64,000 bases of DNA from Pristiophorus japonicus (lineage: Eukaryota). The notes below the pieces were generated by a model. The model was not told the origin of the DNA, searched no databases, and worked only from the letters and a program-made list of their open reading frames with translations. The position numbers and the translations under genes are program-made. Of the stretch, positions 5,531-34,852 are shown piece by piece (the first letter of the stretch is position 1; the number at the start of each line of letters is the position of its first letter). The stretch lies in contig NC_091990.1 in the NCBI RefSeq assembly GCF_044704955.1, positions 14,446,001 to 14,510,000 of the forward strand. The letters run 5' to 3'.

Positions 5531-6223
5531 GTCAGCACGGCTCGACACCAGAGTTCCTTCCAACCCATCCAATCACCTGCCCTCTCCCCACTTGGATTTC
5601 CTGACCTTCACACGGAGGAAATGTGGATTAGCTTGCAGGCCACAGCCATGCGGGTGGACACATGCAGTTGGAACATTGGGTGCGTATGCACAGCTCCGGT
5701 GGGGGTGGGATGGTGCTTAGGCTCTCCCCCCCACCCCCCGCCATAGAGGTCTGAATGCGCATAACTTGTTTGTGCAAATAATCACTCAAATAATCCTGAC
5801 ATAGGAGAATTATCAACAGCAGCAGAAAGTTGAACACCATAAAATGAATAGCATTGTCCTATAACCAGTACTGAAATACCCCAATACTCACTTTTGAGTT
5901 CTACCAGTATCGTTAGGGTTGGCACAGGCATGATGGGTAGAATGGCCTTCTTCTGTGCTGTATCATTTCATAATAGCAAGGATTGGAAACAGCTGCTTCA
6001 CTCAAGATGATTTTGTGGGTAAGCACACGAGCGGTGTGGTACCGAGCCATACAAATCAGCAAGGTGCAGATTTGATTGCCTGCACAGTGCTGGGCTCGCT
6101 GATCGCTATCCACTCACCCCTGTTAGTGTCTACACTCGTGCACTTTCTAAGTGAGGGATTAGACGATTATGAAGGGCCCCCAAGGCCCCAGGATCACGCA
6201 ACATGAATGGTCATTAGGTGAGG

Positions 6224-21983: not shown

Positions 21984-23862
21984 ATAAGAATTAGGAACAG
22001 AAGTAGGCCATCTAGCCCCTCGAGCCTGCTCCGCCATTCAATAAGATCATGGCTGATCTGGCCGTGGACTCAACTCCACTTCCTGCCCTCTCCCAGTAAC
22101 CCTTAATTCCCTTATTGGTTAAAAATCTATCTATCTGTGACTTGAATACATTCAATGAGCTCGCCTCAACTGCTTCCTTGGGCAGAGAATTCCACAGATT
22201 CACAACCCTCTGGGAGAAGAAATTCCTTCTCAACTCGGTTTTAAATTGGCTCCCCCGTATTTTGAGGCTGTGCCCCCTAGTTCTAGTCTCCCCGACCAGT
22301 GGAAACAACCTCTCTGCCTCTATCTTGTCTATCCCTTTCATTATTTTAAATGTTTCTATAAGATCACCCCTCATCCTTCTGAACTCCAACGAGTAAAGAC
22401 CCAGTCTGCTCAATCTATCATCATAAGGTAACCCCCTCATCTCCGGAATCAGCCTAGTGAATCGTCTCTGTACCCCTTCCAAAGCCAATATATCCTTCCT
22501 TAAGTAAGGTGACCAAAACTGCACGCAGTACTCCAGGTGCGGCCATACCAATACCCTACACAGTTGCAGCAGGATCTCCCTGCTTTTGGACTCCATCCCT
22601 CTCGCAATGAAGGCCAACATTCCATTCGCCTTCCTGATTACCTGCTGCACCTGCAAACTAACTTTTTGGGATTCATGCACAAGGATCCCCAGGTCCCTCT
22701 GCATCTCAGCATGTTGTAATTTCTCCCCATTCAAATAATATTCCCTTTTACTGTTTTTTTTTCCCCCAAGGTGGATGACCTCACACTTTCTGACATTGTA
22801 TTCCATCTGCCAAACCTTCACCCATTCGCTTAACCTATCCAAATCTCTTTGCAGCCTCTGTGTGTCCTCTACACAACCCGCATTCCCACTAATCTTTGTG
22901 TCATCTGCAAATTTTGTTACACTACACTCTGTCCCCTCTTCCAGGTCATCTATGTATATTGTAAACAGTTGTGGTCCCAGCACCGATCCCTGTGGCACAC
23001 CACTAACCATCGCTTTCCAACCCAAAAAGGACCCATTTATCCCGACTCTCTGCTTTCTGTTCGTCAGCCAATTCTCTATCCATGCGAATACATTTCCCCT
23101 GACTCCGCGTACCTCTACCTTCTACAGTAACCTTTTGTGTGGCACCTTATCGAATGCCTTTTGGAAATCTAAATACACCACATCCATCGGTACACCTCTA
23201 TCCACCATGCTCGTTATATCCTCAAAGAATTCTAGTAAATTAGTTAAACATGATTTCCTCTTCATGAACCCATGCTGCGACTGCTTGATTGCACTATTCC
23301 TATCTAGATGTCCCGCTATTTCTTCCTTAATGATAGCTTCAAGCATTTTCCCCACTACAGATGTTAAACTAACCTGCTTTTTGTCTGCCCCCTTTTTTAA
23401 ACAGAGGCGTTACATTAGCTGTGTTCCAATCCGCTGGTACCTCCCCAGAGTCCAGAGAATTTTGGTAGATTATAACAAATGCATCTGCTATAACTTCCGC
23501 CATCTCTTTTAATACCCTGGGATGCATTTCATCAGGACCAGGGGACTTGTCTACCTTGAGTCCCCATTAGCCTGTCCAGCACTACCCCCCTAGTAATAGT
23601 GATTGTCTCAAGGTCCTCCCTTCCCACATTCCTGTGACCAGCAATTTTTGGCATGGTTTTTGTGTCTTCCACTGTGAAGACTGAAGCAAAATAATTGTTT
23701 AAGGTCTCAGCCATTTCCACATTTCCCATTATTAAATCTCCCTTCTCATCTTCTAAGGGACCAACATTTACTTTAGTCACTCTTTTCCATTTTATATATC
23801 TGTAAAAGCTTTTACTATCTGTTTTTATGTTTTGCGCAAGTTTACCTTCGAAATCTATCTTT
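21984..23862 (-). mobile_element. 5'-truncated CR1 LINE with a 337-aa RT C-terminal ORF (22012-23025)
   Basis: SGVPQGSVLGPQLFTIYIDDL, TKFADDTK, HLEYCVQFWSP, TRGH; CR1 3' UTR at about 21990-22080. Confidence 0.96.
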
Positions 23863-31267: not shown

Positions 31268-31613
31268 CAGTAGTACTGAGGGAGTGCTGAACAGTGGGAA
31301 ATGCCATCTTTCAGATCAGTAGTTAAACCAAGGCACCGTCTGCCCTCTCAAGTGGATGCAAAAGGTCCCATGGCACTATTCGAAGAAGAACGAGGGAATT
31401 CTACCTGGTGTTCTGACCAATATTTATCCCTCAACCAACATTATTAGAACAAATTATCTGGTCATTATCAGATTGCCGTTTGTGGGATCTTGCTGTGCAC
31501 CAATTGGCTGCTGCGTTTCCTACATTACAACAGTGACTACATTTCAAAAGGTACTTAGTTGGCTGTAAAGCATTTTGCAATGTCCTGAAGTTGTAAAAGA
31601 TGCTATATAAATC
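31268..31613 (+). mobile_element. Deu-domain SINE whose tail resumes at 33114 after the LTR insertion
   Basis: AGTACTGAGGGAGTGCTG...GACCAATATTTATCCCTCAACCAACA...GTGGGATCTTGCTGTGC...GCTATATAAAT. Confidence 0.88.
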
Positions 31614-31852
31614 GGCAATGTATTTGCTTCATGGGTTCTTTGCTCAAGAATTCAGAGCAACTCATTGCTATTAAGAACTAATTGGTTTATTTGCAAAGGT
31701 TAAACAATCACACTACACATTACCAGTTCATCCACCAGGCTCTCAACCACCTGCCTTATCGTGGATCCCCTGAACCCAACTGGCTGAGGTTTTATTGAGT
31801 CTTGTGAACATCACGTGACTGGTTAAGCCACTCACAACTCAACAGTTCTACA

Positions 31853-32180
31853 ACTATTTTAGTTGCACCTGTAAAACAATAAATTAAATCAAGTGCCCCC
31901 TGATTAAAAGGTGGGGGCACTAAGAACCGACAAACTTAAACAAATTAAACTTTAGACATTACGTGGTTCAAATTAAATTTGGTTACCGGGGGTGATGAGG
32001 CACTCCAGTCCCTCCGGCGCCCACCTCTCACGGAAGGCCACGAGTGTACCGGTGGACACCGCGTGCTCCATCTCCAGGGACACCCTGGCTCGGACGTAAC
32101 CATGGAAGAGAGTCAGGCAATCGGGCTGAACGACCCCCCCACCCCCTGACCGCCCGCTGCCTGGACCGGTTGATGGCCAC
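31853..32180 (-). mobile_element. Tx1-clade LINE 3' fragment, copy 1 (short 3' UTR)
   Basis: VAINRSRQRA..VQPDCLTLFHGYVRARVSLEMEHAVSTGTLVAFRERWAPEG resembles the Tx1 ORF2 C-terminus; flanked by 15-bp direct repeats. Confidence 0.8.
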
Positions 32181-32195
32181 CTCAACAGCTCTACA

Positions 32196-32628
32196 ACTCT
32201 TTCGGTTGGAAGCAAAGTTAGAGAGTTAAATCAAGTGCCCCCTAACTGGGGGACACGCCAAACACTTTTTAAGGCCCTTTTTTTTTGTTTGTTTTTTTTG
32301 TGGGGTTGTGTGTGTTTTTTTGGGCACTAAAACACAAATATATACAAGTGCCCTCTATAAAAGGGAAGGGGGACACTAAAACCAGACAATAAAACAAATT
32401 AAACTTTAAAACAAGTAAAATCAAATTAAAATTTGGTTGCCGCGGGTGATGATGCACTCCAGTCCCTCCGGCACCCACCTCTCACGGAAGGCTGCGAGCG
32501 TACCGGTGGACACCACGTGCTCCATCTCCAGGGACACCCTGGCTCGGATGTAAGCACGGAAGAGAGTCAGGCAATCGGCTGAATGATCCCCCCTCGACCG
32601 CCCGCTGCCTGGACCGGTTGATGGCCAC
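32196..32628 (-). mobile_element. Tx1-clade LINE 3' fragment, copy 2 (long 3' UTR)
   Basis: DCLTLFRAYIRARVSLEMEHVVSTGTLAAFRERWVPEGLECIITRGNQILI*; flanked by CTCAACAGCTCTACA. Confidence 0.8.
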
Positions 32629-32643
32629 CTCAACAGCTCTACA

Positions 32644-33058
32644 CTCTTTTGTAGAAAACATAAACAATTAAATCAAGTGCCCCCCCAATCTGGGGGACAC
32701 TCCAACACTTATCAAGGCCCTTTTTTTTGTTGTTTTGTTTGTTTTTTTTGTTGGGCACGAAAACATACATTATACAAGTGCCCCCTATAAAAGGGGAGGG
32801 GGACACTAAAACCGGCAATAAAACAAATTAAACTTTAAAACATATAAAATCAAATTAAAATTTGGTTGCCGGGGGTGATGATGCACTCCAGTCCCTCCGG
32901 CGGTCAGCTCTCGCAGAAGGCCGTGAGCGTACCGGTGGACACCGCATGCTCCATCTCCAAGGACACCCTGGCTCGGATGTAAGCGCGGAAGAGAGTCAGA
33001 CAATCGGGCTGAACGATCCCCCCTCAACTGCCCGCTGCCTGGACCGGTTGAAGGCCGC
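32644..33058 (-). mobile_element. Tx1-clade LINE 3' fragment, copy 3 (long 3' UTR)
   Basis: Homologous to copies 1 and 2, same 5' breakpoint; flanked by CTCAACAGCTCTACA. Confidence 0.8.
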
Positions 33059-34852
33059 CTCAACAGCTCTACAAACCTGTGCGCATACTCACAGGTGCAT
33101 ACATTACAAAATCCAAGTGTTTCTTTTAGTTATTTCGAGGGTGGGCAAGTTAGCTGCTCCAAGCAATCGATGTCCCTCTAACTGATCAGTGCAGGATCAG
33201 CTGACATTGTCAAACCCGCTTGAATTTTCCTCTATACCTGACGGAAATCGATTTGGACTCCACTAATCGCCGTCAACGATCCAACTGGGGTGTCAAACTC
33301 ACTGCTGGAAAACCATGCATGCAAAGCCAATCTATCCATTGCACTGGGCATCAGTAAAGCAACATGCACCAGAATGGCAGGATGTTACACAGTATCGTAG
33401 GGTTACCTGGGAGTGATAACTAGACAATGACCTATCCAAGTAGGCGGAGATGGTATATGCAATCATGCATATCTGGGAGTGGCTGATTTTTATAAAACTG
33501 TATACATGTGAAAACATTTTCAGACATTGTGAAGTAAATTTGAATAAGGACAGTGTATGAGCAATGTTTCTTACATTCAGCAAATAAGGTGATTCAGAAA
33601 TATTCCTTCAAAATGCACATCATTTTCATAATTGCTTGTGTACAGAATACAAATCACTAAGATTACACTACCTTTAATCAAACTACACATAACTGGAATC
33701 AGATTCTTTTCAAATGGAGCAGAGTTGACTTGCACAATTTGGCATTTGACAAACATCATTCTGTACTTTGGTAGGTACAAGAGCTTGGAAGACGATAAAG
33801 CACTACACCATGAATATTTTATGTTTATTCTCTTCCCTTGTCCTCTTAACTTTTTTTAAACCTACCTTCTTAAGCCTACAGGATGGGTTTCTAAAAACAC
33901 AAAAATTTCCATTCCCAAATCACTACTTCATAATTTACCTCAACTTCTCTCATGTTCTTCTCAATATTTGTGCTATTCTGCACTGTGATCTTTAATATTT
34001 TTTTGAAGAAATTTCTGTCCTAATCCACAACATGTCAAAATCACCAATAGTGAAAGCACCAGTGGGCAATCTTGCTGTCTTCTACAAAGGTCCTGGAGAT
34101 CTCACCAGCCTGGGTAGAAGAGACCCCATGTCCTACTGTTTCACAGTACACTACGTCGTTACTCTAAACAATCTGGGCAGGTGGTCATTTTTGTTGCTGT
34201 TGAAAGCTGGATTCTGTGGTGTGAGTGCTTGTCAATTGAAATAAAAACTCAGCAAAATAATCCAGTGAAATGTTTCAAATGTACCAGTCAAGTAATAAAG
34301 AACAGCAAGACTCCGGCAGCTTTCCAACAGCTGCATTACATGAGCAGTGGGGTTCGTGCACCTGCTGTTAGTTTGGTTAGAAGTTAAACAATTTGAAAAA
34401 GAAGGAACTGTGTTAATCTGACCAATAATAATCAAGAAACAACTCAACGCAACTTCACACATCATTTGGTGTATTTTGAGTGTATAGAATTGTTGCAGTT
34501 TCAGTTGCAGCAAGTCCACTTCCTTTACTGACCAGTACCTAGCAAATTGCAGTGACACAATAAAAGATCAAATGGTTTATAACCATAAGGTTATTGCAAG
34601 GACAAAAAATATTTTTTTTTCAAACCATTGGCAGCCATGCCTTCAACCATCTAGGCGCCGTGCTCTGGAATTCACTTCCTGAACCTCTCCACCGCTAAGT
34701 CCCTCCTTAAAATCCACTTCTTTGAAAGTTACATTTATATAGCACTTTTAACATGGTAAAATGTCCCAAGGCACTTCACCAGAGCATAAATCAGACAAAA
34801 ATGGATACCAAGCCACAGAAGGAGACATTAGGACAAGTGACCAAAAGTCTTA

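Follow-up and report, generated by a model that had tools for sequence, protein, structure and literature searches.

Tx1-clade LINEs occupy one short site in the LTRs of a Gypsy retrotransposon, where successive copies stack in a single direction, and the copies within a stack commonly share a 5' junction that is private to their locus. Newer units are chimeras, with a 3' part drawn from the genome-wide pool and a 5' tract from the neighbour. We propose, with a probability of about 0.65, that newer copies acquire their 5' junction and the variants near it as their cDNA pairs with, and copies, the 5' end of the resident copy.

In the window, as we call the whole 64,000-nucleotide stretch analysed, a solo Gypsy LTR lies between 5-bp TSDs (AAATC, 31609..31613 on the left and 33109..33113 on the right). 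Its sense is that of the minus strand, an orientation based on the PBS and polypurine tract of two-LTR copies and on their RT-RNaseH-integrase order. The downstream part of the LTR, including the target, occupies 31614..31852, and its first 35 bp, upstream of the target in LTR sense, occupy 33074..33108; uninterrupted copies are found elsewhere. Given this orientation, the target lies ~35-50 bases into the LTR and the Tx1 insertions are co-oriented with their host.

The 15-mer CTCAACAG(C/T)TCTACA occurs exactly four times in the window, all on the minus strand and at the positions reported in a preliminary description of this DNA, versus an expectation of 0.28 with up to two mismatches allowed. 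Copy 1 (31838..31852) is the original LTR site, with bottom-strand priming presumed at its right edge on the plus strand. Copies 2 (32181..32195) and 3 (32629..32643) are duplications, and copy 4 (33059..33073) is the regenerated upstream site, after which LTR sequence continues. Between them, also on the minus strand, stand three Tx1 tails of 328, 433 and 415 bp. Tail 1 (31853..32180) belongs to an older subfamily, has a short 3' UTR, ends in ..AAAATAGT and was probably the first insertion. Tail 2 (32196..32628), from a younger subfamily, has a long 3' UTR and ends in ..AAAGAGT, while tail 3 (32644..33058), likewise of a younger subfamily and probably the last insertion, ends in CTACAAAAGAG. 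The insert lengths, the single ORF2 base at which all three inserts start, their differing 3' UTR layouts and the 274-bp LTR recovered on removing them (31614-31852 plus 33074-33108, between the AAATC repeats) agree with the preliminary description. Its claim that the 3' termini differ also holds, although the third carries four A rather than five. The three inserts have 81% column identity, and at the junction Tx1 has the same two bases as the start of the 15-mer, a 2-nt microhomology.

Short-read contigs from one sample, which may be the source of the assembly, cover 30 of 30 bins. A 113-nt piece from this sample spans the second target copy with one difference, and no contig from it spans the whole array. 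The solo LTR was inserted into the end of a very high-copy short repeat (31270-31613, read depth 2-3 x 10^5), which we take to be SINE-like.

The host repeat yielded at least 4,238 first-look candidates in the 5.9-Gb assembly. It has TG..CA LTRs with a 5-bp TSD, and its two-LTR copies carry a PBS, a polypurine tract and fragments of RT, RNase H and integrase in Gypsy order, which in L207 appear as the Pfam domains RVT_1, RT_RNaseH, Integrase_H2C2 and rve. Every Gypsy copy examined is degraded. At two loci (L029 and L027) the LTR itself is in tandem, with three copies at ~437-bp spacing in L029. Five more loci (L099, L106, L108, L116 and L128) have Tx1 units into which other Gypsy-like elements and CR1 copies are nested.

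Occupancy of the target is high. Among 29 LTR copies at other loci, 14 are plainly empty, 13 plainly filled and two rearranged. An exact pattern joining LTR context, target and the start of the Tx1 3' end found 1,559 filled sites versus 638 of the empty form, that is, 71% filled. A Tx1 tail lies within 1.5 kb in 26 of the first 30 filled matches; the other four are two arrays behind nested elements and two short stubs. A pattern that ignores the flank returned 4,539 Tx1 3' ends genome-wide, and 25 of the first 30 (~27 loci) adjoin the target, scored as at most two mismatches to its 12-bp core. Site-specific targeting of the LTR, as first suggested for the window, is thus borne out, with far more than 20% of flanks of one sequence type, the definition of a target-specific LINE in PMC4494074. 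The five off-target 3' ends (L248, L253, L264, L267 and L270) belong without exception to the younger type and have in common with the target no more than its last 3-4 bases (..ACA), hinting at relaxed specificity before a target switch. The TSD does regenerate the target, at a length of 13-15 bp with a mode of 14 (84 first units) rather than the 15 bp first proposed.

We compared the two LTRs of single Gypsy copies. Of 21 copies examined (L146 and 20 others), seven were readable at both targets: one LTR is filled in four, both are filled with different inserts in one, and both are empty in two. This discordance indicates that Tx1 inserted after Gypsy integration and was not carried by the LTR element. 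Spread of whole arrays with the host, raised in the preliminary description as a contrary outcome, is rejected, as the same insert is seen twice in none of the seven.

We mapped 5' junctions in 153 of ~207 parsed units, from 92 arrays; units below 100 nt and those whose 5' end could not be mapped were excluded. Some arrays are cut where the fetched stretch ends, and a decayed target copy may go unnoticed, so that units are merged. The window junction together with the target has two matches in 5.9 Gb, both in the window. Across the arrays, the junction is common, to within one base, to 39 of 61 adjacent units and to 32 of 41 arrays, versus 33 of 6,193 pairs between arrays; permutation gives a mean of 0.6 and a maximum of 4 of 61. 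Arrays found through the LTR only behave similarly, with 25 of 43 adjacent pairs sharing a junction. The 22 of 61 pairs that do not share are evenly split, the newer unit being longer in 11 and shorter in 11. Overall, 5' junctions are spread from ~100 to 2,100 nt from the 3' end, in addition to full-length copies.

At some loci the junction was re-copied together with adjoining sequence. A short stub and its target are repeated exactly in L060 (51 nt) and L093 (26 nt), and the same probably occurred in L099. Four loci (L105, L197, L134 and L126) hold non-colinear units, which fit template jumps as well as later deletions and are therefore not counted as evidence. Micro-arrays in L114, L072 and L139, with up to nine units of 25-35 nt, each made of the target and ~10-20 nt of Tx1 3' end, may reflect abortive insertions or slippage.

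The order of units within arrays is fixed. Two 3'-end types exist, diverging from a young reference copy by 11.6% (older) and 7.0% (younger). Among 67 typed pairs the older precedes the younger 26 times and the reverse occurs 0 times, indicating that arrays grow in one direction, at the upstream target. Neighbours are not close kin: outside the junction region, the closest relative is the neighbour in one of 25 pairs, with a median percentile of 0.46. The three window inserts rank each other 16th to 72nd of 121, with best matches at other loci of 91-93% versus 53-88% for neighbours. We used nearest-neighbour ranks in place of a tree because the ORF2 stretch common to the window inserts is ~200 nt. 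These data substantiate the earlier suggestion of independent serial insertions by different subfamilies, and local duplication of the window inserts, the check proposed with it, finds no support in their ranks.

Near the junction, the picture is different. Of the rare variants of the older unit, 32% are also present in the newer one within 0-25 nt of the junction, 20% at 25-50 nt and 28% at 50-100 nt, falling to 10-14% at 100-400 nt and 2% beyond 400 nt, versus 1-5% in the control. Window tails 2 and 3 both share with tail 1 its 5' junction and two rare variants, which lie 50 and 57 nt from that junction. We relied on rare variants because raw identity by distance in old arrays (7-11% versus 11-13%) is weakly informative, post-insertion decay being dominant. 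Likeness confined to the junction, between units otherwise unrelated, indicates that new copies likely take their 5' end from the resident.

A younger sister family provides intact copies of the element. The full-length sister copy is 7.2 kb long and encodes a 703-aa ORF1, for which we found no Pfam match, and a 1,306-aa frame with an APE endonuclease (PF03372), an RT (PF00078) and a zinc motif (PF13966). Its ORF2 has as best named full-length match the Xenopus TX1 149 kDa protein (49% over 99%), which together with the domains upholds the original assignment to the Tx1 clade, and partial protein matches of 69-70% in a ray and a shark, which point to a cartilaginous fish as the probable source. 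The best intact ORF2 matches lie away from the LTR site, antisense in a LINE ORF2 at TCCTTGTGCATGAA. The flanks of one such array (C18) translate as ..QRDLGVLVHE / SQKISLQV..PHLEYCVQFW, which may be one uninterrupted C-terminal region of a LINE ORF2; judging by its motifs, this host is probably CR1. A genome search for intact ORF2 found only this sister, and none from the LTR-targeting subfamilies.

The CR1 site shows 6,534 exact filled matches versus 25,749 of one empty variant. Full-length 7.2-kb copies stand head to tail in arrays that reach nine units or more, and many of these copies have an open 1,306-aa frame (G000:C9:181254001-181314000; C1:9709814-9777814; C1:112939001-112979000; and many more). 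The window holds five empty CR1-type sites (11818, 22686, 25225, 36303 and 44819), of which none is filled; the exact sister-family motif is that at 22686, on the minus strand. Four CR1 sites near the start of C1 (L209, L210, L212 and L215) carry an identical 47-nt stub, with repeated 167-aa frames also present, and are probably copies of one larger duplicated segment.

Truncated arrays at the CR1 site also have private junctions, namely C18 with six units, L178 and L238 with three each, L223 with two, and two more pairs. In the very young arrays the junction is shared throughout (6/6 units in C18, 3/3 in both L178 and L238). Across 33 same-junction pairs, from arrays picked non-randomly from match lists, mismatch over the first 100 nt is 0.6-1.3% versus 5.4-6.0% in controls, and the tract of identity is 132 nt long in the median, versus 9 nt. 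The first mismatch falls within 1,100 nt in 28 of 31 non-identical pairs, in a set where many units are 2-7 kb long. A random sample of 40 CR1 sites contained four mappable adjacent pairs, three of which share a junction. Beyond 400 nt, young neighbours are still 1.5-1.9 times more alike than controls, two of the 33 pairs are fully identical, and C18 has alternating unit types; these observations indicate that ordinary duplication or local re-insertion also contributes.

The proposed course of events is as follows. The APE endonuclease would nick the bottom strand at the target edge, and the RT would start on RNA from a master copy elsewhere. The resulting duplication would place a rebuilt target on the upstream side of the first insert, to be used by later insertions. 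Just past this upstream copy would lie the 5' end of the resident, homologous to the cDNA. Instead of joining through a random microhomology, the cDNA would anneal or switch to the resident's sense strand, at a point tens to hundreds of bases from the resident's end. The outcome would in effect be a long target duplication, made up of the target and the resident's 5' tract, which would sometimes take in a short stub and the extra target in between. About one third of events would escape resident pairing and form a junction of their own. The sequence products are alike whether the template is resident DNA or a local transcript, and whether strand invasion or a far-shifted second nick is involved.

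The strongest of the other explanations, although unlikely, is that insertions were independent and their junctions later homogenised by allelic gene conversion or unequal crossover. A chromosome that lacks the new copy would start pairing at the upstream flank, which brings its resident into line with the new copy; such pairing is in register and the end product is the same, re-copied stubs included. Identical and alternating units also show that recombination does act on arrays. Crossovers and conversion tracts would, however, be expected anywhere along the homology, whereas the shared tracts hug the junction. Conversion would also have to bridge large indels in roughly two of every three events, involving copies that differ by 8-13%, and to have acted in the very young arrays (C18, L178 and L238) too.

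Slightly less probable again is that the RT jumps from the incoming RNA not to the resident's DNA but to a read-through transcript made locally from the resident locus. LINE RTs do jump between templates, according to the available text of PMC6895275, and the same chimeras would result. The transcript would, however, have to cross the site in Tx1 sense. The LTR site is within the first 50 bp of the LTR and at the CR1 site Tx1 is antisense to its host, yet the effect is present at both sites.

Local tandem duplication of one insert followed by divergence explains shared junctions simply, and two of 33 young pairs are identical, yet as a general cause it is refuted, leaving it very improbable: the neighbour is closest in one of 25 pairs, and different subfamilies follow a fixed order (26 versus 0). 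Least probable of all, and negligible in our view, are a fixed-length non-autonomous derivative and a microhomology hot spot, the two causes of the fixed 5' junction offered in the preliminary description, and array capture and spread by the LTR element: despite the 2-nt microhomology in the window and the few positions that recur between loci (33/6,193 pairs), junction positions vary widely, other arrays have their own junctions, the window junction is at no other locus (2/2 matches in the window), and the LTRs of one Gypsy copy are discordant.

Copying from the resident by the cDNA may also bear on the history of the element. Degraded full-length copies stand at the LTR target in L095 and L106, and partly in L094; the endonucleases of the L095 and L106 copies are 75% and 88% identical to that of the intact sister. 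Two of two long older-type copies have 90-135 nt of LTR sequence at their head (L095:7345-7491; L094 ~6079-6192, oriented), namely the stretch just past the target. This could be either a target-mimicking head or a long duplication; an LTR-bearing head would allow the same cDNA pairing at an empty site. A pattern search for young-type heads at the LTR target gave 0 matches. Over its final 20 nt, the young head aligns in register with the LTR target next to the L106 full-length copy, and a 15-mer at the young 5' tips matches the LTR target at 10-12 of 15 positions in nine heads (L179, L181-L187 and the C9 arrays); against the LTR alone, the match of the young head is marginal (16 of 500 shuffles). 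The one in-register copy suggests that the young family descends from an LTR-seated copy and switched its target from LTR to CR1, and the 15-mer is possibly a relic of the old target.

A bolder, joint reading can be put forward at rather less than even odds. Here the cDNA would invade the duplex downstream of the nick, with homology setting the length of the TSD, and the stacks would form a one-directional record of subfamilies at thousands of loci. The oldest subfamily would have used an LTR-copied head at empty sites, and the target would have switched from a nearly saturated Gypsy LTR to the CR1 ORF2, with a relic of the old target kept at the 5' tip. If this reading is true, the joining step and the change of specificity can both be put to the test, as there are hundreds of intact copies.

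The joining of the 5' end and the priming of the second strand in APE-type LINEs are described as unresolved in the available text of PMC6895275, a question that includes human L1. Each stack is a natural experiment in which a long homology is placed just downstream of the nick and most newcomers use it, with results to be read at thousands of loci; with the intact sister family it can be repeated in cells that carry a marked resident. With one lineage, two unrelated 14-bp targets and endonucleases 75-88% identical, the system is compact enough to map specificity residues, which are useful for site-specific gene insertion tools. The stacks resemble tandem duplications and are in fact ordered records of subfamily succession. 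This LINE has filled ~70% of an LTR family's intact sites, together with roughly one fifth of those of one CR1 site variant, and offers a large example of transposons parasitised by another.

The preliminary description knew of no Tx1 family targeting this LTR. That statement stands for the present LTR in the literature searched, which holds no report of this Tx1 family or of inherited truncation points and in which Repbase and most subscription papers are not covered; the family may already be named somewhere. It is less new than it seemed, as LTR-targeting Tx1 elements have been described in crocodilians. According to the main text of Kojima 2015 (PMC4494074), Tx1-8_Crp, Tx1-4_AMi and Tx1-Mar are Tx1-clade LINEs that prefer another transposon, in two cases an LTR retrotransposon, and tandem copies of SINEU-3 around a TSD are read as sequential insertions. 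Our elements resemble these in the preference for LTR retrotransposons and in tandem copies around a TSD. That main text, whose target alignments are in supplements, does not mention a single-base LTR site, ~70% occupancy, a shared private 5' truncation or a CR1 target. Neither the targeting of LTRs by Tx1 nor stacking at a regenerated site is thus new; what is new is the proposed inheritance of the junction, which the preliminary description did not contain.

Tx1L of Xenopus laevis targets Tx1D, as stated in the main text of PMC4494074. Its ORF2 (YTX2_XENLA) shares 49% identity with that of the sister across 1,297 residues; the EN-RT-zinc layout is the same, and it too is specific for a site in another mobile element. 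The target of Tx1L is, however, a piggyBac-type DNA transposon, in contrast to the Gypsy LTR and CR1 ORF2 found here. In Drosophila 28S rDNA, R1 arrays are extended by new copies that enter the TSD at the resident's 5' end, according to the available text of Stage and Eickbush 2009 (PMC2718515). R1 is likewise an APE LINE with a 14-bp TSD and the same direction of array growth. That text does not describe an inherited truncation point, which concerted evolution of rDNA would blur; R1 resides in rDNA, whereas the Tx1 arrays here are at thousands of dispersed loci.

For R2, the available texts describe pairing of cDNA with target DNA before second-strand cleavage (PMC6895275) and 5' 'anneal' junctions (PMC11371274), and the former does not decide whether APE LINEs also go through such an intermediate. 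R2 is similar in that the 5' junction is made by pairing of cDNA with DNA at the target site. As an RLE element, however, R2 pairs upstream of the nick, as far as these texts describe, whereas here the homology lies downstream, in the previous copy, and the product is a duplication. For L1, Gilbert and colleagues are said to have reported, in 2005, chimeric elements made by SDSA-like pairing. Templated duplications, in which a stretch of the genome is duplicated after the growing L1 cDNA has paired with homologous DNA nearby, much as proposed here, are rare, with 22 cases in the available text of bioRxiv 10.1101/2024.08.27.596794. What is rare in L1 is the majority outcome in this Tx1, because targeting sets each new copy beside a homologue.
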